Origin: a virus | Taxonomy: Duplodnaviria > Caudoviricetes | DNA: 63,295 bases | IMG/VR virus record: IMGVR_UViG_3300032050_008197 | Location: 1-63,295 of that record | Reading direction: 5' to 3' (one strand) | Part shown: positions 32,266-60,885 of the stretch, one piece after another | Layout of the letters: every line of letters starts with the position of its first letter | Numbering within the stretch: position 1 is the stretch's first letter | Position numbers and translations under genes: made by a program | The notes under the pieces: generated by a model | Told to the model about the DNA's origin: nothing | Database searches by the model: none | The model's input: only the letters and a program-made list of their open reading frames with translations

Positions 32266-32341
32266 TGGCTGCATAGGCAAGGATCAAACTTGCGACCACT
32301 GACTTAACAGGTCAGCGCTCTACCGGCTGAGCTACTATGCA
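32266..32341 (-). tRNA. tRNA-Asn(GUU) with encoded CCA
   Basis: 76 nt; acceptor stem TGCATAG/CTATGCA, then G, CCA; D arm GCTC...GAGC; anticodon arm CTGAC-CTGTTAA-GTCAG; T arm GCAAG-TTTGATC-CTTGC. Confidence 0.93.
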
Positions 32342-33645: not shown

Positions 33646-33705
33646 TTAATTCCCGCAGTGCATTGATCACAGTGCATTGCATGAATCGATTATGATTCTA
33701 GTCAA
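33643..33705 (+). promoter_or_regulatory. Early intergenic hairpin element (RNase III-like site) with GATTCTAGTCAA tail
   Basis: ATTC-cc-GCAGTGCATTG-atca-CAGTGCATTGC-at-GAAT. Confidence 0.7.
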
Positions 33706-36031: not shown

Positions 36032-36119
36032 ATCAGCCGTACCTATGCTAGGCATGGTTAGTTATATCTCAACCTAATCGAGCCACTAGGATCGATTATT
36101 AATAAAACGGTAGGAACTT

Positions 36120-37338: not shown

Positions 37339-37571
37339 ATCCAGAATTAATAAGACCGCTAATCTGGTTAGTGATAGGTGGAGGTTTAGCCTATTACGGA
37401 TATAAGAAAGGGAAGATAGTAATGGTTGAGGTTAAGCAACAACTATTCACTCTCCCCTCAGTAATAATCTTTATAATATATGCAGCTATGTTAGGAGGAA
37501 TAGCTATCCCTTACATATGGAGCACATACCACATAGAGATTTATTCCAAGCCGGATTTTAATAAGAAGTGA
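37335..37571 (+). CDS. Two-TM membrane protein
   Basis: Two hydrophobic helices; ATGA-coupled to the upstream gene. Confidence 0.65.
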   Translation: MNPELIRPLIWLVIGGGLAYYGYKKGKIVMVEVKQQLFTLPSVIIFIIYAAMLGGIAIPYIWSTYHIEIYSKPDFNKK

Positions 37572-37643
37572 AATTGATTCCCGCAGTGCACTTAAGGGTG
37601 CATTGCATGAAGCAATAATGCTGAACTAAACGGTAAGATTATG
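37572..37643 (+). repeat. ~72-bp direct repeat (hairpin + leader + ATG), copy 1
   Basis: Identical to 38209-38282 except in the hairpin loop. Confidence 0.9.
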
Positions 37644-38210
37644 TATATAAATACTTATGGTCCAAGAAACATAGAAGAGATTGAGACTAGCCTTGAATCA
37701 TTCAGAGCAAGTCTAAGCATGCTCACATCTCTACAAGAAAAAGGATTTAAAACTATAAATGATGCATGGCGAACAGTCTGCAAAACTCAAGTAACTAAAA
37801 GAGACCTTGAGAAGTTTGCAGCTTTATTAGGTGACGAAGTTGAAGCTGATAAAGACAGCCGTTCTTGGGAATGGTTTAGTAAGTACGGAGGGACTAGAAC
37901 CGTAACTTTTTATACCTCTGGTAACTCCTGGAAAGCTAATAAAAAGATCTTAACTATGGCTATCAAGGAAGATCTCAATATCGAGCGTCATTACTGCGGA
38001 GGTAGCTACAATATAGAAGAACATACGATTGATAGTTTGATCTCTGCATGTAAGGAATCTATCAAAGATTATGAGAAGGCCTTAACTCTCAAAGACTCGA
38101 TAGACCAGAGAATAAAAGACTATGAAGCTGCTTTAAAGAAAGCAGTTGAGGAGGCTTTCGACACTCACATAAAGCCGGTCTATGTCTTGGTTAATTCTAG
38201 ATCTGTGTAA
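37641..38210 (+). CDS. Early hypothetical protein flanked by the direct repeats
   Basis: 189-aa ORF starting at the ATG of the repeat. Confidence 0.75.
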   Translation: MYINTYGPRNIEEIETSLESFRASLSMLTSLQEKGFKTINDAWRTVCKTQVTKRDLEKFAALLGDEVEADKDSRSWEWFSKYGGTRTVTFYTSGNSWKANKKILTMAIKEDLNIERHYCGGSYNIEEHTIDSLISACKESIKDYEKALTLKDSIDQRIKDYEAALKKAVEEAFDTHIKPVYVLVNSRSV

Positions 38211-38282
38211 TTGATTCCCGCAGTGCACTTTAAGTAGTGCATTGCATGAAGCAATAATGCTGAACTAAACGGTAAGATTATG
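38209..38282 (+). repeat. ~74-bp direct repeat (hairpin + leader + ATG), copy 2
   Basis: AATTGATTCCCGCAGTGCACTT...TGCATTGCATGAAGCAATAATGCTGAACTAAACGGTAAGATTATG. Confidence 0.9.
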
Positions 38283-42980: not shown

Positions 42981-43014
42981 GACCTTCATTGGCAACAGTA
43001 AAACGGTAAGTAAC

Positions 43015-44367
43015 GTGATAATTGATAACGAGTTCATATTAAAAAACTGCGTACCTGCAGTACTGAGAGATGCAGGGATATCTCCTTTCGATTATCAGTA
43101 TGAGGGGATAAAAGCTCTGTTTCAGAAGAATAGGTTTCTTCTTTCGGATGACCCTGGCCTAGGTAAAAGTATGCAGTCTATTGTAGCTGTGAATCTTGTG
43201 CAGAGGTTTAACACTCATCACCTTTATCAGGATGAATGGCTACTTAAGCCTCTAAAAGTCCTAGTAATAGGGACTAAATCTATAGTTCTGAACTGGAAGA
43301 GGGAGATCAGTAACTGGAGTAATCCTGTAACAGAATGGACTGTCATTAATCACGATAAGTTAATCGGCAAGGATCATGAGAAGTACCTAAAGAATTGGGA
43401 CATAGTGATAGCCGATGAATCGGCACTCTATATAAAGAATCAGAATACTCTTAGGTGTAAGATGTTCATGCAGATAATCTCCACAAGCGAGAGAGTGTGG
43501 TTAATGACTGCAACGCCGGCTAGTAAGTGTGCATCAGATTACTATGTTACTTTAAAAGTTCTACTTCCTGATATCTTTAATAAGATAAGCCTAACTAAAT
43601 TCAAGATGAGATATTGCCAAGCCATAAAAGACCCATACACATACTCAGGTGTAACTTATGCAGGGTTTCACAAGAAAAACATAGCTGAACTGAATAAAGT
43701 ATTTAGAGCTTGTGCATTAGGAAGGAAACAAGACGAAGTTAAAAAAGATTTACCACCACTGACATTCTCTGAATATTTTGTAGATGTTGATAATGTAGAA
43801 AACTTTTCTAAAGAAGAGATTGAAGAGATAAAGAAAAGAATATGGGAAGGAGTGGAGCTGAGTTCTCAGTATCAAGCTGTATTAAGAACTAATGCGATAC
43901 ATAAAATCCCTTCTATCCTGGAGCTTCTGAGTACATATCCTTTGGATAAGAAAGTAGTCCTATTCATCTGGCATACAGATGTTGCTGATAAGCTGGTGTC
44001 TGAGATCTCTAAGACAGATAGAAAGGTAGATAAGATAACAGGGCAGATTACTTCTGAACTAAAGAGGCAAGACATCATTGATAGATTTCAAACTGGAGAT
44101 CTTAATACCTTGGTCCTAAACATGCAGTCCGGAGGTGTGGGGATAAACCTAACGGCTGCAACAGTAGGCATATATGTACAGTTTCCAAGCGTTGCTTCTA
44201 TGTGGATACAGAGTCTGAAGCGTATCCATAGAATAGGTTCCAAAGAGCCGGTGCAGATCATCAAGGTAATGATTGAAGGAAGTATAGATGAGGAGATTTT
44301 CTCAGTGTTAGAGCAGAGACTGGAGTATATAGAGCAAGTTGGTTTGCAATCTAGGAGGGAATTATGA
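43015..44367 (+). CDS. SNF2-family DEAD/H-like helicase (probable GTG start at 43015)
   Basis: DDPGLGKS, IADES, MTATPA, GGVGINL, RIHRIG. Confidence 0.9.
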   Translation: MIIDNEFILKNCVPAVLRDAGISPFDYQYEGIKALFQKNRFLLSDDPGLGKSMQSIVAVNLVQRFNTHHLYQDEWLLKPLKVLVIGTKSIVLNWKREISNWSNPVTEWTVINHDKLIGKDHEKYLKNWDIVIADESALYIKNQNTLRCKMFMQIISTSERVWLMTATPASKCASDYYVTLKVLLPDIFNKISLTKFKMRYCQAIKDPYTYSGVTYAGFHKKNIAELNKVFRACALGRKQDEVKKDLPPLTFSEYFVDVDNVENFSKEEIEEIKKRIWEGVELSSQYQAVLRTNAIHKIPSILELLSTYPLDKKVVLFIWHTDVADKLVSEISKTDRKVDKITGQITSELKRQDIIDRFQTGDLNTLVLNMQSGGVGINLTAATVGIYVQFPSVASMWIQSLKRIHRIGSKEPVQIIKVMIEGSIDEEIFSVLEQRLEYIEQVGLQSRREL

Positions 44368-46827: not shown

Positions 46828-47051
46828 ACGAGAAATATAGAATAGGGACTAAGATATATTTAGTTACGAAGAGAAGGGATGAAGAAGCCATCAGTTTATA
46901 TGGACCTATCTCAGTAGAAAAAATACAAATATCCTCTGAGGGAGTTCTGTATTACTTATCTACAGGTGAGTGGAAGCATAAAACTTACGATATGTTTATT
47001 GATTTAGATGACGCAGTAGAAGCATTTAAAGGAAGGCTAGAGAAGAAATGA
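46821..47051 (+). CDS. Hypothetical protein
   Basis: GGAG SD. Confidence 0.55.
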   Translation: MLDEKYRIGTKIYLVTKRRDEEAISLYGPISVEKIQISSEGVLYYLSTGEWKHKTYDMFIDLDDAVEAFKGRLEKK

Positions 47052-49180
47052 TCAGCATAATTATCCCCACATTCGGCGACAATGAAAGAGTAACTAAGTT
47101 AAAAGACTCTGTACGAAAACACGAGGCACCTTTCCATGAAGCGCCTATATCTCATATGTATGAGTTTATTGTCGTAAACGATAACCCTAAGAAGGAGATG
47201 ATGTCAGTTATTAATAACGAAAAGAACCTCGGCTTTGCTGCGTCTGTTAATAAAGGAATGGCTGCAGCTAAAGGGGATATTATTCTGTTATTAAATGACG
47301 ACATCACAATCACAGCTCCATTCATCGACACCTTAAATGAGGCTTTTAAAGATCCAGATCTAGGTATAGCCGGCGCTTTGCTTGTATATCCTAACGGCTC
47401 TATTCAGCATGGAGGCATGGCATACAACGAAAAGTTAGGAAGCTTTTTGCATATTAAAAGCTTCAACAGACTACAAAGCAGGTACTGTATTGCTGTGACC
47501 GGAGCTTTCTTTGCTATAAGAAGAGAGCTTTATAACAAGATAGGCGGGTTGGATGAGAGATTCTTTCTAGCCTGTGAGGATACTAAGTACTGTCTAGATG
47601 CTTGGGATGCTGGATATACAGTAAAGTTTTTCAAAGAGCTAACAGCTATTCACGAGGAAGGGGCTACTAGAGGTAACACCCCTAAGAAGAAAAAAGATAA
47701 GCCTGAGTGGACGGAAGCTGAAGCTAAAGGAATAAAGGAATTCAAAGCACAGCTAGACCTCTCTAAGATAAGAGAGATAGAAAAGAAAGTTAAGAAACTA
47801 AATGCTAAGAACCTAAAGATTGAAGTAGGCTCAGGGTATAATCCCCAGCCTGGGTATTTACATCTAGATATAAGAGGAGGATTACCTCAACTAGATTATA
47901 TCTGTGACTTCGTTAAACAGAGACTGCCTTTTAATGACGGGGAAGTTTCTGAGATTCTAGCCAATCATGTAATAGAGCATATTCCTTTCAGGAAACTTCC
48001 TTTTGTAATCAGTGAGTGGGCTAGGGTGCTAACTCCTGGAGGCCGGCTAGTGCTAAGGACTCCTAATCTAAGGTTCATCTGTGAGCAATACTTAAAAGGT
48101 GAGACAACTCCTGAGTGGCCTGGAGATGAAAAGTTTATAAAGGAAAACTTATCTGACTCTGTAACGCCGGCTTGGTGGGCGAATCTTAAATTATTCTCTG
48201 GTCAAGACTACGATGCTAATTTTCATCATGTGTGTTTTGATGCAGAGATGCTTAGAGATCTATTAGGTAGGTACGGGTTTACAGATGGAAGAGTCACTGA
48301 TCTAGGAAAAGAGTATTCTCCTGGTGAGCTGCAGTTTGAATCTTTTAAAGCCGAGCCTAGAGAAATCTGCTTGCTTAAAAGACTAGGAGCTTTAGGAGAT
48401 GTAATACTAACTACACCTATTGTAGAGCGTCTGCATAAGGAAGGATATGATGTTTATATAGACACAATGTGTCCTCAAGTATTTACTAATAATCCTTACG
48501 TTAAAGGAACCTATTTAAATCTGGATAAAAAACCTAAGCCAGTAATCGCTAGGAGGGTAGACCTGGATTTAGCTTACGAGAAGAATCCTAAGATGCATAT
48601 CATAGATGCTTATTCTCTGGAGGCTTTTGGAGATACTAAGACTCCTCATGAGACCAATCTCTACGTACCTAATTATTTAGTAAGTAAAAACAATTTTATT
48701 CCATACATAGTTCTCCATATGGGAAATAGTTGGGAGAACAGAACTTGGTCTAAAGAGTACTGGAAAGAGCTACTAAAGAAACTTCTGTACAGTGGAGAAA
48801 AGATAATCATAGTCGGTTCAAAAGACGACTTCCGATCTGAAAGCTCTAGCATCACTAACTTAGTAGGTAAGCAAACTTTCCATGAGTTAGCAGAGACAAT
48901 TAGAAACGCTAAGCTTTTCATCGGGATAGACTCAGCTCCTTTTCACATAGCTGAAGCTGTGGACACACCGGCTATAGGAATATTCACTTGTGCTAATCCT
49001 GAGTTTAGATCTACTAAGAAAAGCACGTTGCCAGTTGTGCCTGATATTGATTGTAAGTTCTGTCTGCACGAAGAGAAGCCTCCAGTTACATGGTGTGGCT
49101 GTAAGCGTGGAGACTTCAAGTGCCTGGAGATAATTACACCGGATATGATTTATGAGAAGTATTTGGAGATGAAGGTATGA
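47048..49180 (+). CDS. Triple fusion: GT2 glycosyltransferase + SAM methyltransferase + GT9 (heptosyltransferase-like)
   Basis: ISIIIPT, NLGFAASVN, LLNDD, GGLDERF (GT2); IEVGSG, HVIEH, RVLTPGG (MTase); RLGALGDVILTTP, FIGIDSAPFHIAEA (GT9). Confidence 0.85.
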   Translation: MISIIIPTFGDNERVTKLKDSVRKHEAPFHEAPISHMYEFIVVNDNPKKEMMSVINNEKNLGFAASVNKGMAAAKGDIILLLNDDITITAPFIDTLNEAFKDPDLGIAGALLVYPNGSIQHGGMAYNEKLGSFLHIKSFNRLQSRYCIAVTGAFFAIRRELYNKIGGLDERFFLACEDTKYCLDAWDAGYTVKFFKELTAIHEEGATRGNTPKKKKDKPEWTEAEAKGIKEFKAQLDLSKIREIEKKVKKLNAKNLKIEVGSGYNPQPGYLHLDIRGGLPQLDYICDFVKQRLPFNDGEVSEILANHVIEHIPFRKLPFVISEWARVLTPGGRLVLRTPNLRFICEQYLKGETTPEWPGDEKFIKENLSDSVTPAWWANLKLFSGQDYDANFHHVCFDAEMLRDLLGRYGFTDGRVTDLGKEYSPGELQFESFKAEPREICLLKRLGALGDVILTTPIVERLHKEGYDVYIDTMCPQVFTNNPYVKGTYLNLDKKPKPVIARRVDLDLAYEKNPKMHIIDAYSLEAFGDTKTPHETNLYVPNYLVSKNNFIPYIVLHMGNSWENRTWSKEYWKELLKKLLYSGEKIIIVGSKDDFRSESSSITNLVGKQTFHELAETIRNAKLFIGIDSAPFHIAEAVDTPAIGIFTCANPEFRSTKKSTLPVVPDIDCKFCLHEEKPPVTWCGCKRGDFKCLEIITPDMIYEKYLEMKV

Positions 49181-50142: not shown

Positions 50143-50186
50143 CAGGAACTTTTCCTGTTGACGTAAAAGAAATACTTACATAGACT
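50143..50186 (+). promoter_or_regulatory. Sigma70 promoter with an upstream inverted repeat
   Basis: TTGACG (50158-63), 17-nt spacer, TAGACT (50181-86); CAGGAA-ctt-TTCCTG abuts the -35. Confidence 0.65.
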
Positions 50187-50215
50187 GCGACAGTCATATT
50201 AAAACGGTAAGAACA

Positions 50216-52647: not shown

Positions 52648-52681
52648 ATTGTATAAATAAAATAAGTTGATAAGGATTGAT

Positions 52682-53356
52682 ATGGCAAAGGATAATAAAA
52701 CAGTTAACGGGTTCACCTTACTAGTTCCCACAAAGGATAGACCTTTTAGCGGTATATACGGAAACGATATTGCGTCTCCGTTAGGTAGAATAGCATTCGT
52801 TAATTTAGCTACTCCTGCTGGAAGACCAGGAGATAAGCCTAAATACGGAGTTTCACTTCTTGTTCCTAAGAATGAAGGACTTAATGATAAGACACTTGAA
52901 CAGCAAGTATTTCATCTTAAAGAGATTCAAACTATGTGCAAACTTATGGCTCAGGATCTATGGGGAGCTAATGCAGAGGAGAATCTTAAAAAGATTAAGC
53001 GTGGATACTTTGGAGACGGAGATAGTCCATCTACAACTGGCAAGGTGTATGACGGATATGCCGGCACAAGGGTAATCAATGCTAGGAACGGAAAACCTCG
53101 TGGTCATAACCAAGGATGGAGAATACTGAATGAGGGTATGGAGCCTGAGCAGTTTGAGGCAGGAATGATATGTAGATTGACTCTTCAACCTTTCTTAAAC
53201 TCTGATGGGTATTCTTATTCCTTACGGGCTATCAAGTTCATCAAGGATGACGGAGTTAGATTCGGTGGAGCACCGGACCCTGCTTCAGTTATGGATCACT
53301 TGGATAATGCAGTAGCTGCTGTTAGTGCTAATCTAGGTGATATGACGGTTGCTTAA
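52682..53356 (+). CDS. DUF2815-type ssDNA-binding protein (probable start MAKDN)
   Basis: RIAFVNL..P...KYGVSLLVPK, GDGD, GYAG, LRAIKFIKDDG.RFGG; usual DUF2800-DUF2815-PolA synteny. Confidence 0.8.
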   Translation: MAKDNKTVNGFTLLVPTKDRPFSGIYGNDIASPLGRIAFVNLATPAGRPGDKPKYGVSLLVPKNEGLNDKTLEQQVFHLKEIQTMCKLMAQDLWGANAEENLKKIKRGYFGDGDSPSTTGKVYDGYAGTRVINARNGKPRGHNQGWRILNEGMEPEQFEAGMICRLTLQPFLNSDGYSYSLRAIKFIKDDGVRFGGAPDPASVMDHLDNAVAAVSANLGDMTVA

Positions 53357-53365
53357 TATCTGACA

Positions 53366-53402
53366 CCTGGAAAGACAGGATGCATGAGGATTCCTTGTGC
53401 AT
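53366..53402 (+). ncRNA. Two short hairpins opening the ncRNA array
   Basis: CCTG-GAAAGA-CAGG and ATGCATGAGG-att-CCTTGTGCAT. Confidence 0.45.
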
Positions 53403-53493
53403 GAAAAGCTCGGTACTGGACAACCCCCAGCAGTCAGTCTCATAGAGTAGATAGACTGTGACAAAGCGAGGGAAAATACCTTCGGAGCTTTTC
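53403..53493 (+). ncRNA. Unidentified multistem RNA, possible pseudoknot
   Basis: GAAAAGCTC/GAGCTTTTC closing GGTA/TACC, CTGG-acaaccc-CCAG, AGTCT/AGACT; loop CCC can pair with GAGGG. Confidence 0.5.
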
Positions 53494-53494
53494 G

Positions 53495-53587
53495 TGGACA
53501 AGGGAACATAGTTGCTACAGAGTTATCTTACCGTTATCTTTGTAATGCGTCAGGTTGTTTACTGACTCGTTCGTGTTTCCTTGTCCA
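53495..53587 (+). ncRNA. C4-like three-way-junction antisense RNA candidate
   Basis: 14-bp outer stem TGGACAAGGGAACA/TGTTTCCTTGTCCA; TACAGAG-[TTATCTTACCGTTAT]-CTTTGTA; GTCAG-[GTTGTTTA]-CTGAC. Confidence 0.6.
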
Positions 53588-53593
53588 GTTTAA

Positions 53594-53641
53594 TCTCCTG
53601 ATGAGCTGGCGAGATTCCAGCGAAACACTTAGGTGTCGAGA
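53594..53641 (+). ncRNA. Type I hammerhead ribozyme
   Basis: TCTC-CTGATGA-GCTGG-cgagatt-CCAGC-GAA-ACAC-ttag-GTGT-C-GAGA: complete catalytic core with a GUC cleavage triplet (cut after 53637). Confidence 0.88.
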
Positions 53642-53667
53642 AGCGCTACTCATATACAGCTGTTATG

Positions 53668-53777
53668 GCTTTGCCGAGCGAAAGTAGATAGCGAGGTTCC
53701 CAAGTGCTACGGAATCTGGGGTAAACCGCAAACGAGAGAGCACTAGCGGTGACAGGGAGGAGAGCACTCCCATTTTT
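53668..53777 (+). ncRNA. Unidentified structured RNA with possible kissing loops, ending in a terminator-like hairpin
   Basis: GGTTCC-[caAGTGCTac]-GGAATC and ACCGC-[..AGCACTa]-GCGGT have complementary loops; GGGAG-gagagca-CTCCC-ATTTTT. Confidence 0.45.
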
Positions 53778-53789
53778 AAAAAGGACTCT

Positions 53790-54092
53790 ATGAATATAAA
53801 TCCAGCAAGTGACGTACTAATAGTAAAAGAAATAACCCCTTCTGAATCCACACCCGCCGGCATATTCCTTCCTCCTAGCCACACAGAAAAAGATACCTTG
53901 ATGAAAGCTGTTATCGTAGCAGCCGGTCCAGGGAAGATTAATGCTAAAGGAGATATAATCCCTCACGATTTTGTAGTGGATGAGATAATTGTTTTCGAGA
54001 AAAGGAGAGCACTGCCGGTTACTTATGAAGGGGAGAAGTATATTTTCATAAATGCTTCTGAAGTTTTTGGGACTGTGGAGAAGGTTAACTAA
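53790..54092 (+). CDS. groES: Co-chaperonin GroES
   Basis: INPASDVLIV...TPAGIFLP...IVAAGPG...EGEKYIFINASEVFG. Confidence 0.9.
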   Translation: MNINPASDVLIVKEITPSESTPAGIFLPPSHTEKDTLMKAVIVAAGPGKINAKGDIIPHDFVVDEIIVFEKRRALPVTYEGEKYIFINASEVFGTVEKVN

Positions 54093-54317
54093 GTGAAGAA
54101 AGAATACACAGACGTAGATTTTGAAATGTTCGTAATGCCTTTCGGTAAGCATCAAGGCAAGACTATTTCAGAACTGCCGGCTACGTATCTTCTCTGGTTA
54201 GTAGATGAGAGTTTCTGTCCTCCGGTACTGAAAGCTTATATAGAACTTAATGAAGAGGATTTGAGGGAGCAAGCAGATGAAGGTGACTATCATTATGATG
54301 ATCCAAGTTGGAAGTGA
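54093..54317 (+). CDS. DUF3820-like (MPFGK[HY]xG motif) small protein
   Basis: MPFGKHQGKTISELPATYLLWL. Confidence 0.75.
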   Translation: MKKEYTDVDFEMFVMPFGKHQGKTISELPATYLLWLVDESFCPPVLKAYIELNEEDLREQADEGDYHYDDPSWK

Positions 54318-54319
54318 AG

Positions 54320-54751
54320 ATGAAGAAAACTAAAAATACTAAAGGCCGGCGTAAACTTTTATATGATCCGTCTACCAGGTTTTATTGGTTTTTTCAACTA
54401 GGAGGCTCAGAGGAAGACGCATGTAAATGGTTCTGTAAAGAGATGCGTTTTTCTCTTCCGGAACTAGATTCAGGAAACGCAGGAATCTTTGTAAAGAATA
54501 ATTCTTTTAATAGGACAGGTCTAATATGGGTAGGGGATAAAGATTCTCAGGATATTTCTGTAGTAAGTCACGAAGCTAGTCACGCAGTTACGCATCTATG
54601 CAGAGTAATGAAAATAGATCCTTTAGCTTCAGAAGAATTTGTAGCTACTTATCACGGTTATCTAATAGGAGAGTTCCTTACTTTAGTTAATGAAAGCAGC
54701 TCTCTTTATAAGAATAAATTTAGGCTTCCATTTAAATACAAACTAAAGTAA
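54320..54751 (+). CDS. HExxH zincin-like protein
   Basis: VSHEASHAV...EEFVA. Confidence 0.55.
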   Translation: MKKTKNTKGRRKLLYDPSTRFYWFFQLGGSEEDACKWFCKEMRFSLPELDSGNAGIFVKNNSFNRTGLIWVGDKDSQDISVVSHEASHAVTHLCRVMKIDPLASEEFVATYHGYLIGEFLTLVNESSSLYKNKFRLPFKYKLK

Positions 54752-55140: not shown

Positions 55141-55893
55141 ATGAAACGAAGATCTTTAGGTTGGCGCAGAGATAGCTTAGATAAAAGAGATAACATCTTC
55201 TCAAGTTCTAGACTAAAAGAATATATTAAAGTATTGCCGGCTCATGTGGACCTAAGATCTTCGTTTCCTCCTTGCTATGATCAAGGAGAGTTAGGTTCCT
55301 GTACAGCTCAAGCAGTAGGATCAATCTGCGATTATAAGTATGGTTTAGATAATACATTCTTCCCTTCTAGGCTTTTCCTTTACTACATGACAAGGAAACT
55401 AGAAGGAACTACTTTCATAGATAACGGCGCTACTTTAAGAAACACCATCAAAGCAATCAACAAGTTCGGTGTCTGTGATGAATCAGTATGGAATTACATT
55501 ATTGCTAACTTTAATATAGAGCCTCCTTCTTGGGTAAAGGTTCTAGCGGAAAAGCATCAGGCAGTATCTTACAGAAGAGTAAAGCAGAGACTAGATGATT
55601 TAAGAGCTGCTATTGCTGATAGTCATCCGGTTGCTTTTGGGTTCTCTGTTTATGAGAATCTTTACAGCCTTAACAAAGATAAATACCTATTAGAGTTTCC
55701 TGATCCTAACGATGCTCCAGAAGGAGGACACGCTGTAACAGCCGTAGGGTACGATGATACCTTACAGTATTTTATCATTAGAAATTCTTGGGGAGAGGAG
55801 TGGGGAAGTAATGGATACTTTCTCATGCCTTATAATTTTATCTTAGATAAGACTTTGTGTTCTGATTTTTGGACTATTGAGTTAATGGAGTAG
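55141..55893 (+). CDS. C1 (papain-like) cysteine peptidase
   Basis: DQGELGSCTA, GGHAVTAVGYD, IRNSWGEEWG. Confidence 0.92.
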   Translation: MKRRSLGWRRDSLDKRDNIFSSSRLKEYIKVLPAHVDLRSSFPPCYDQGELGSCTAQAVGSICDYKYGLDNTFFPSRLFLYYMTRKLEGTTFIDNGATLRNTIKAINKFGVCDESVWNYIIANFNIEPPSWVKVLAEKHQAVSYRRVKQRLDDLRAAIADSHPVAFGFSVYENLYSLNKDKYLLEFPDPNDAPEGGHAVTAVGYDDTLQYFIIRNSWGEEWGSNGYFLMPYNFILDKTLCSDFWTIELME

Positions 55894-58520: not shown

Positions 58521-58853
58521 ATGAGTAGCCCCACCCAACGAGCCTTAAAAGAATTAAGAAAGAGAGGTTGGAAAGTATACATCACTGAGAAGTTTAATGC
58601 TTTCGCTAGAATCAGGCAGGACGCTTTTGGGTTTGGAGACTTATTAGGAATTGATATAGAGAGTAAAAAAATAGTACTTGTGCAGGTAACATCAGGAGCT
58701 AATCACGCAGCTAGAATAACCAAGATAAAAGGTATTCAAGAAGCGTATGATTGGATAGATAGCGGAGGGCTAATCCTGGTAATGAGCTTTAGAAAAAACT
58801 CTAAAGGTAGATATGACATGAGAGAGGAATATCTAGATTTAGTAAACAATTAA
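58521..58853 (+). CDS. PD-(D/E)xK nuclease / Holliday junction resolvase-like
   Basis: SPTQR...LR..G...V...DAFGFGDL......LVQVTS. Confidence 0.7.
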   Translation: MSSPTQRALKELRKRGWKVYITEKFNAFARIRQDAFGFGDLLGIDIESKKIVLVQVTSGANHAARITKIKGIQEAYDWIDSGGLILVMSFRKNSKGRYDMREEYLDLVNN

Positions 58854-60597: not shown

Positions 60598-60885
60598 ATG
60601 CCAGTAGAATTGAACTTAGTTCCTAGTGATAACCTTTTAAAAGACCTGCAAGGCCCTTGCTCTATCAAGTATATAAAAGAAAAAGAGCCGGCCTTATCTA
60701 CTTCTCTCAAAGAGGATGTAATGGGGATACTAGAAAACGGTAAGCCTTTAGAGGTACAGTGCATAGAAATCATTCGTTACTTTAAAGACAATCAATACTC
60801 TACTCAGATGATAGATTTTCTGCGAGGTGAAGGAATGTCTCATGCTTTAAATGCGAATGCAGATTTTAATGGGCATGAGGATTAA
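60598..60885 (+). CDS. Hypothetical protein (start MPVEL)
   Basis: GGAG SD. Confidence 0.55.
   Translation: MPVELNLVPSDNLLKDLQGPCSIKYIKEKEPALSTSLKEDVMGILENGKPLEVQCIEIIRYFKDNQYSTQMIDFLRGEGMSHALNANADFNGHED

Follow-up and report, generated by a model that had tools for sequence, protein, structure and literature searches.

A conserved structured RNA followed by a hammerhead ribozyme downstream of the SSB gene in a phage genome

The phage genome IMGVR_UViG_3300032050_008197 very probably encodes a real, conserved structured RNA that is followed by a genuine hammerhead ribozyme. The window, meaning the whole stretch of DNA analyzed here, is a complete virus record of 63,295 bp. Within it a gap of 433 nt without open reading frames (ORFs), at positions 53357-53789, separates the genes for a single-stranded DNA-binding protein (SSB) and a GroES-like co-chaperonin. 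The RNA in this gap is about 230 nt long (53366-53587, plus strand) and begins 10 nt past the SSB stop codon. One of its hairpin loops is complementary to a motif that precedes the start codons of several of the phage's own genes. Action of this loop in trans on those start regions is the best single mechanism that the sequences suggest, and we put it forward tentatively, at somewhat less than even confidence.

The structured RNA and the adjoining ribozyme

The structured RNA consists of two hairpins and two multi-branched domains. A preliminary description of this DNA had placed a 93-nt three-way junction with a long closing stem and two arms at 53495-53587, and this fold was recovered, with a closing stem of 14-15 bp. 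Its minimum free energy (MFE) on the plus strand is -35.3 kcal/mol, compared with -18.4 +/- 3.4 for shuffled sequences (z -5.06), and none of 200 shuffles is as stable. The minus strand folds worse (-24.0, z -3.63). This junction, domain B, is one part of the larger RNA. Domain A, upstream of it, has a free energy of -37.4 kcal/mol (z -4.98, with 0 of 200 shuffles as stable), and the region 53357-53497 is strongly structured as well (z -4.75). The closing stems are CAUGAAAAGCUC/GAGCUUUUCGUG in domain A and UGGACAAGGGAACA/UGUUUCCUUGUCCA in domain B. G001 in the following list is the closest relative compared at the DNA level.

53366..53379, + strand: hp1, a small hairpin, CCUG-GAAAGA-CAGG, from the MFE structure
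53380..53402, + strand: hp2 (strands 1:2), AUGCAUGAGGA/UCCUUGUGCAU; strand 2 alternatively pairs with 53497-53503
53399..53497, + strand: domain A, a cloverleaf-like four-way junction with a 12-bp closing stem, from the fold
53495..53587, + strand: domain B, the three-way junction, from the fold; G001 has a homolog of the same architecture
53524..53535, + strand: apical loop core of arm 1 of domain B, (U)AUCUUACCGUU, the candidate antisense seed; mean probability of being unpaired 0.57-0.76

The arm 1 loop has 15 nt, is mostly open, and reads UUAUCUUACCGUUAU. The CUUA within its core presumably fits the YUNR pattern of a U-turn. No internal duplication was found among the domains of the element, and DNA searches of GenBank phages with the gap and with the region 45-63 kb gave no match. 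Judging by its position in the sequence, the RNA forms the 3' untranslated region (UTR) of the SSB gene, within the transcript of the replication operon.

A complete type I hammerhead lies at 53588-53641, directly 3' of domain B. The preliminary description was right to place the RNA on the plus strand, and it had overlooked the ribozyme. The hammerhead is on the plus strand, so this is the transcribed strand. Its parts are as follows.

53594-97 with 53638-41, + strand: stem I, UCUC/GAGA, 4 bp
53598-604, + strand: core sequence CUGAUGA
53605-21, + strand: stem II, GCUGG-CGAGAUU-CCAGC, 5 bp
53622-25, + strand: GAAA
53625-36, + strand: stem III, ACAC-UUAG-GUGU, 4 bp, including the pair A53625-U53636
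53637, + strand: C17, with the predicted cut at 53637/53638

The core contains C3-U4-G5-A6-N7-G8-A9, G12-A13-A14, the pair A15.1-U16.1, and a residue other than G at H17. Three helices surround it and stem I is open, holding the 5' and 3' ends; cleavage itself is predicted. A type I descriptor matches the window at one site and matches none of 500 dinucleotide shuffles; a looser version of it matches 20 of 500 shuffles. The MFE structure of 53495-53641 contains both the junction and the canonical hammerhead with all three helices.

Related ribozymes are present in many phages. The pattern of core plus stem II was found at 52 IMG/VR loci, and in these stem II and loop II are nearly the same as in the window. 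These loci represent 40 distinct sequences, 36 of which parse as complete type I hammerheads using GUC, GUA or GUU. Stems I and III covary in 10 hammerheads (99.3% of cells paired vs 27-40% when slid), and none of 500 shuffles reaches the covariation score. A covariance model, R1, was made from a gap-free alignment of 10 IMG/VR phage hammerheads with the window excluded. It matches 53586-53649 over its full length at 51.5 bits (E 1.1e-15, a rough value), and this is its only match in the 63 kb. Among the hammerhead models of Rfam 15, Hammerhead_3 scores 18.6 bits on the window where 48.5 are needed, and RF00163 has no match. Rfam 15 also misses seven of seven sibling hammerhead loci tested, showing that it is insensitive to this subfamily. 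The exact 32-nt hammerhead string has no match in IMG/VR.

The IMG/VR loci (L020-L071) form a widespread subfamily of phage type I hammerheads in which stem II and loop II, GCUGG-YGARAUU-CCAGC, are nearly invariant and a UAAAC-like sequence is frequently found 5' of stem I. Many of these siblings lie about 5 nt past a stop codon and about 40 nt ahead of the next start, and some are in long gaps. The regions upstream of 14 other hammerhead loci were folded, and none has a similar junction; three have tRNAs upstream (L024, L047 and L050).

Intergenic type I hammerheads are known from phages and prophages (Perreault et al. 2011, PMC3088659). That paper proposes that they process long transcripts into shorter mRNAs and calls their precise functions unclear. 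The ribozyme of the window shares with them the consensus core, the three helices, the GUC triplet, and a position on the sense strand between phage genes. Phage hammerheads often come right after a stop codon, whereas this one stands behind about 230 nt of structured RNA that is conserved. Cleavage at 53637/38 would leave an upstream fragment ending 3' with the structured RNA and the ribozyme core, and it would free the GroES mRNA with a 5'-OH.

Conservation and alternative folds

The same RNA architecture is found in G001, whose SSB and helicase are 60% and 65.5% identical to those of the window. About 230 nt after its SSB gene contain the same chain of helices: hp1, hp2, domain A with a long stem, and the three-way domain B. 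The domain B homolog (L076:8538-8621) has a free energy of -36.2 kcal/mol. The helices of the two phages were compared by hand, since MAFFT and RNAalifold misaligned the two whole elements, and the domain B alignment is not structural in its 3' half. The corresponding helices of G001 are these.

hp1: CUCCG-GAGAGA-CGGAG, at the same place (CCUG/CAGG in the window); the sequence is changed and the pairing kept
hp2: AUGCACAG/CUGUGCAU (window, AUGCAUGAGGA/UCCUUGUGCAU)
domain A closing stem: CAUGAAAGCGUGAG/CUCACGCUUUCAUG (window, CAUGAAAAGCUC/GAGCUUUUCGUG)
domain B closing stem: UGGACAGAAGGAG/CUCCUUCUGUCCA (window, UGGACAAGGGAACA/UGUUUCCUUGUCCA), with an inserted G-C pair and changed pairs

Pairing kept with different bases is strong evidence of a functional RNA, here from two sequences. 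In domain B the conserved block is the stem and loop core of arm 1, with CAGAG and the 9-mer UCUUACCGU unchanged between the two phages. The loops of arm 2 are unrelated and cannot be aligned. With helices backed by compensatory changes and no entry in Rfam 15, the RNA is a candidate new RNA family, whatever its mechanism.

Homologs beyond G001 were sought in several ways. With blastn and nhmmer, the gap matched the collected loci in the hammerhead segment alone, the RNA being too diverged for detection. The domain A stem pattern found the G001 contig only in IMG/VR. The domain B pattern found the G001 contig and six chance matches there. In 185,579 species genomes it had seven chance matches, all of them lacking the hairpin and the closing stem. 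A pattern of loop plus hammerhead gave one IMG/VR and three metagenome matches, all by chance and without similarity. Single-protein queries of IMG/VR with the SSB and the polymerase gave nothing, and the 98 pattern matches to the SSB in JGI metagenomes included no relatives. SSB relatives closer than G001, at 61-80% identity (P0001, P0002, P0004-P0006, P0008 and P0009), are known as proteins only. Of three contigs with an SSB 56-57% identical, two have no RNA, motif or hammerhead, and the third stops at the SSB gene.

The element follows the SSB gene in both the window and G001, and the next gene downstream differs. In the 57%-identity relative L004, the 99-nt gap after the SSB gene (L004:3631-3729) folds into one long hairpin of 16 bp (z -2.5) that does not resemble the RNA of the window. 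Phages of this group may generally carry structured RNA behind the SSB gene. Directly 3' of the G001 element, at about 8609-8690 of L076, is a 34-nt tandem duplication, TCTGTCCATCTTGGAAAATGTTATGGCAAAGAAA. The duplicated stretch runs from the end of the domain B stem through a ribosome-binding site (RBS) into the first codons of the following gene, and it is either real or an assembly artefact.

The element is likely a bistable switch, judging from predicted folds in both phages. In the domain B stem, the 5' strand GGACAAGG has an alternative partner in a second copy of UCCUUGUG upstream, within hp2. The strand 53495-53503 pairs with 53579-53587 when the junction is formed and with 53393-53400 when it is open. 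The two folds are nearly isoenergetic, at -86.4 and -83.2 in the window, -104.0 and -103.3 with the ribozyme included, and -84.4 and -83.8 in G001, and the gap between them is 0.6-3.2 kcal/mol across both phages. All three G001 strands carry a one-base insertion (CCUU-C-UGUG, GGACA-G-AAGG and CCUU-C-UGUCC), and because it is the same in each, both alternative helices survive. Both folds contain arm 1 with its loop open, and switching as such therefore does not depend on the loop.

The switch may gate hammerhead cleavage. With the junction formed, the hammerhead can fold. In the open fold of the window, GUGUUUC is freed and pairs with GAAACAC of the ribozyme, and the hammerhead is predicted to misfold; the state of the RNA may in this way control self-cleavage. 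The predicted mispairing between the ribozyme core and an alternative fold of the upstream RNA sets this hammerhead apart from the known phage hammerheads. Transcription attenuators and similar 1:2-2:3-3:4 switches resemble the element in their series of mutually exclusive helices, which compensating changes preserve. Here, however, the 3:4 helix closes a three-way junction, there is no U tract, and neither a leader peptide nor a ligand pocket is evident. A transcription attenuator with a terminal terminator hairpin was rejected, as the last helix of the element is followed by GUUUAAUCUC.

The arm 1 loop and the start-codon motif

The arm 1 loop is the reverse complement of a motif at start codons in the early and replication block. 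The motif positions in the preliminary description are all correct, and the helicase site is right, except that the helicase GTG lies at 43015 and not at 43017.

36106..36116, + strand: AACGGTAGGAA (AACGGTAgG at 36106), 3 nt 5' of ATG 36120 of a 41-aa ORF; hybrid -14.2 kcal/mol
37629..37639, + strand: AACGGTAAGAT, exact, 1 nt 5' of ATG 37641 (189 aa, no family match), in the repeat 37568-37643
38268..38278, + strand: AACGGTAAGAT, exact, 1 nt 5' of ATG 38280 (74 aa), in the repeat 38205-38282
43002..43014, + strand: AACGGTAAGTAAC, directly 5' of the helicase GTG 43015; the best hybrid, -16.2 kcal/mol
50203..50212, + strand: AACGGTAAGA (AACGGTAAGAa), 3 nt 5' of the Dam ATG 50216

The motif is enriched in the window and tied to translation starts. 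The 11-mer AACGGTAAGAT is also found exactly on the minus strand at 53525-35, inside the RNA loop. With up to one mismatch the 11-mer occurs 5 times (0.9 expected; 1 of 100 shuffles reaches 5) and the 9-mer 23 times (10.0 +/- 2.9 expected; none of 100 shuffles reaches 23). The 9-mer AACGGTAAG is the commonest in the start regions of 86 ORFs; it is exact at 43002, and another copy is within a gene at 60736. The octamer AAACGGTA occurs nine times on the plus strand and never on the minus strand, and five of the nine are 5-7 nt 5' of a start codon. As the preliminary description proposed, the motif occupies the Shine-Dalgarno position. Its GGT is at -9..-7, in the same register as in the local Shine-Dalgarno variant AAAGGTAA that many genes use, and ACGGTA ends 6-8 nt before the start at all five window sites and both sites in G001.

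The sites at 37641 and 38280 belong to one direct repeat of 76-78 nt (37568-37643 and 38205-38282, with two mismatches and two one-base indels), so the five targets originally listed are four independent ones. This reduction weighs against trans action, as do the points gathered below. The repeat cassette makes up the entire intergenic leader of each of two consecutive genes, with the RBS motif and ATG at its end. It contains imperfect inverted repeats (AGTGCAC..GTGCATT and GCATT..AATGC) and may be a duplicated promoter or leader cassette. Separately, a second start-region motif, GATTCTAGTCAA, is found on the plus strand at 33694, 34672 and 35323, 15-20 nt 5' of three consecutive early gene starts. 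It has no copy on the opposite strand and could act as an early promoter or as a signal for processing.

The motif is also present in G001, where AAAACGGTA is ahead of the starts of both the helicase and dam genes, which are orthologous to those of the window. The sequence is AAAACGGTAAAAT before the helicase ATG and ACGGTAAAGAAAAACGGTATAAATTG before the dam ATG. The motif core and its register appear to have been kept at a divergence where a neutral leader should have decayed. The RNA and the motif core occur together in the window and in G001 (helicase and dam), and both are missing from G002 and G003, whose helicases are about 51% identical.

Several measures bear on the predicted pairing of the loop with the leaders. 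About 4.6 kb of noncoding plus strand are expected to contain 0.018 reverse complements for a 9-mer, 0.0055 for a 10-mer and 0.0016 for an 11-mer. When hybrids of the 17-nt loop with 83 start regions were predicted, the five proposed targets were the top five, at -16.2 to -14.2 kcal/mol. Seven start regions reach -13 kcal/mol or lower, a count equaled by 2 of 1500 shuffled loops. The predicted hybrids have 10-13 bp and cover -12..-2 of the five starts, and the seed is mostly unpaired. Opening costs 1.3-1.6 kcal/mol for the loop and 0.9-4.9 for the targets, and the duplexes gain -14 to -16. The loop is thus predicted to be accessible, with net energies in the range of working sRNA-mRNA pairs (sRNA, small RNA).

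In the mechanism suggested by these results, the apical loop of arm 1 (UCUUACCGU) would pair with the motif (A)AACGGUAAGA over the Shine-Dalgarno GGU at -9..-7 and block ribosome entry. The targets would be at least four independent start regions, those of the 41-aa ORF, the 37641/38280 cassette genes, the helicase and Dam. Transcription of the replication operon would then turn down these early and replication genes. The 3' end of the candidate sRNA could be made by the hammerhead.

Further observations count against trans action of the loop. The count of seven start regions is reached by 41 of 1500 random genomic 17-mers. A test with the whole 30-nt arm does not discriminate, since 30 of 83 regions reach -12 or lower and random 30-mers average 19. 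The finding was chosen post hoc out of a very large scan. In G001 the loop is complementary to 7 nt of the helicase site and 6 nt of the dam-proximal site, and to 7+3 nt, with a bulge, of the dam-distal site; dam ranks third and the helicase sixth of 17 by loop pairing, and there are other matches of 7-8 nt. G001 has no detected hammerhead after its RNA element, and ribozyme maturation is therefore not part of the conserved element. The gap has no promoter-like site for a discrete sRNA, no terminator after the junction and no defined 5' end. The only two homologs of the RNA, in the window and G001, are from mutually closest relatives, and the co-occurrence of RNA and motif may be shared ancestry. 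Finally, the conserved part of the motif, UAAAACGGUA, reaches farther 5' than the loop can pair, its 5' UAAAA having no complement in the loop or its flank, which suggests that something else may read the motif.

Such a reader could be an RNA-binding protein, as RegA of T4 is for its translational operators. Alternatively the motif could be a lineage-specific RBS variant spread by recombination of start cassettes, and in either case the match to the loop would be due to chance. The 5' UAAAA that the loop does not complement fits this explanation, as do the presence of the local variant AAAGGTAA in the motif with its GGT in the same register, and the cassette duplication, which shows that such gene starts spread. 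It needs a coincidence of 0.002-0.02, however, and leaves the conservation of the loop 9-mer in G001 unexplained, and no RegA-like or other RNA-binding regulator was found among 26 proteins scanned. We consider it improbable.

The motif could also act in DNA, with ACGGTAAGA as the operator of a phage DNA-binding regulator, placed just 3' of several promoters, a reversed copy after the SSB gene, and an unrelated RNA fold. A double-stranded site can work in either orientation, the intergenic regions around the sites measure at least 69 nt and could accommodate promoters (a promoter-like site at 50158-50186 ahead of dam, and TTGACA-N16-TATACC ahead of the helicase), and the copy in the RNA is flanked by two copies of GTTATCTT, a direct repeat with 11-bp spacing. 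The fixed register to the start codon at five window and two G001 sites, however, indicates translation rather than promoter geometry. The motif is not palindromic, and promoter-like sites are not enriched (36 found vs 53 expected). The GTTATCTT repeat is missing from G001, where only the loop core survives, within a conserved hairpin. Protein family scans identified no regulator. An operator of this kind is quite improbable.

A cis-acting role alone is the main rival, somewhat less likely than trans action. The RNA, as part of the SSB 3' UTR or of the leader of the next gene, would then serve as a conserved folding switch or as a module for processing or stability. It would shield the end of the upstream mRNA, undergo RNase III cutting at its long stems, or gate the hammerhead and downstream expression. 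The loop 9-mer would be kept because a protein or a tertiary contact requires it, and its complementarity to the RBS motif would be coincidental. Conserved bistability with the coordinated triple indel and near-equal energies, and the predicted mispaired ribozyme of the open state, favor such a role. The SSB gene is always the upstream neighbor of the element, whereas the gene on the other side varies, and hammerheads of this family normally just separate cistrons, in line with the transcript processing proposed in PMC3088659. The weak loop complementarity in G001 points the same way, and the loop has possible intramolecular partners in CGGUA at 53411-15 and GGUAAG in domain A of G001. These partners are short, however, and at non-homologous positions. 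The loop is open in both folds and is not required for switching, and an exact complement of 9-11 nt to the top start-region motif is expected only 0.002-0.02 times in noncoding DNA.

Trans action of the loop invites comparison with known antisense RNAs. In phages P1 and P7, c4 RNA arises by excision from a longer transcript and is not made as a unit. It has two loops complementary to two sites in one target mRNA, and its processing includes an RNase P step. The RNA described here has one conserved loop rather than two, several unlinked candidate target genes rather than one downstream mRNA, and a 3' end that would be made by the hammerhead instead of RNase P; the phage shows no sign of an immunity region. 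The likeness is one of function, since c4, as presented in PMC12197685, is a structured phage RNA whose loop is complementary to the ribosome-binding region of a phage mRNA and blocks translation. Searches with Rfam over 53200-53900 and 53480-53700 gave no C4 match at E <= 10 or at the gathering threshold, and at E <= 10 returned only a weak hammerhead match, snoR1 and nqrA-Marinomonas. With no covariance-model match and a single conserved loop, there is next to no chance that the RNA is a member of the C4 family.

The RNA also resembles trans-acting sRNAs of bacteria and phages that derive from 3' UTRs, such as CisR, which is reported to act on the cep mRNA of CTXphi (PMC13250501). Like these, it is carried in the 3' UTR of a coding gene, would be processed out, and would pair with the RBS through a short seed. 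It differs in having no Rho-independent terminator at its end, in a release that would be by the ribozyme, and in having its seed in the hairpin loop of a three-way junction.

In the trans-antisense interpretation of the preliminary description, the RNA element, the accessible loop, the conserved loop core and the Shine-Dalgarno register have held up, while C4 membership, the multi-loop logic and a free-standing sRNA gene have not. Of the two loops, that of arm 1 alone is conserved and has matches. The second-arm target proposed at 58841 is a single 9-mer occurrence and weak, and the arm 2 loop is not conserved in G001. No promoter-like site was found in the gap 53357-53789, and the element is SSB 3' UTR. 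The full combination, a ribozyme-matured, fold-gated trans-acting sRNA that represses a small regulon from the SSB 3' UTR, would be a new riboregulator class and, if true, would give a phage hammerhead a concrete biological role; it is unlikely to be right in every part. A full-text literature search, judged by titles and the starts of abstracts, found no description of a hammerhead-matured phage sRNA.

Gene context and significance

The RNA is located in the early and replication block, which covers the window from about 33 kb onward and has all its genes on the plus strand. The following are relevant to the element and its candidate targets.

GTG 43015, + strand: start of the SNF2-type helicase gene
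ATG 50216, + strand: start of the Dam methyltransferase gene
52667..53356, + strand: Gp2.5/Enc34-type SSB gene (PHROG 112, E 1e-12; Pfam PF10991)
53755..53771, + strand: terminator-like hairpin with a short U run, 19 nt 5' of the GroES start
53790..54092, + strand: GroES-like co-chaperonin gene, the first after the ribozyme cut (Pfam Cpn10, E 5e-16; PHROG 3188)
55141-55893, + strand: gene for a papain-family (Peptidase_C1) protein, replication module
in the early and replication block, + strand: DUF2800/PD-(D/E)XK nuclease gene
in the early and replication block, + strand: family A DNA polymerase gene

Other explanations of the gap were rejected. The minus-strand ORFs 53333-53509 and 53663-53884 have no PHROG match, and the first would encode an implausible Cys/Pro/Ser-rich product. 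The gap is not a decayed gene, as small ORFs beside the SSB genes of relatives match 54066-54664 and the GroES gene and not the gap. For a replication origin with iterons there is a single pair of 8-nt repeats, which is not kept in G001, and no composition signal at 2-kb resolution. Downstream of the cut, 53638-53780 is not unusually structured (z -0.3). Among the sequencing runs searched, no RNA run carries the sequence. Contigs from the DNA runs X7, X8, X10 and X11 that span the RNA have no differences from the window and so offer no microdiversity to analyze; the X10 piece and the matching X8 piece reach only 37 nt into GroES.

Several other features of the genome were observed. The order of the GroES gene and the ORF at 54093 is swapped between the window and L004. 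The replication block encodes a 710-aa protein (47048-49180) with glycosyltransferase family 2, methyltransferase and glycosyltransferase family 9 domains. A single tRNA-Asn (GTT) is at the boundary of the structural and early blocks (32266-32341, minus strand) and is the sole Rfam match at the gathering threshold.

The position of a hammerhead directly against a conserved switch-like RNA provides a testable hypothesis of regulated cleavage. To our knowledge, lytic-type phages have rarely been shown to control their own genes by trans-acting RNAs. A loop that matches five ribosome-binding sites and is conserved in a relative at 60% identity is a clear candidate for such control.

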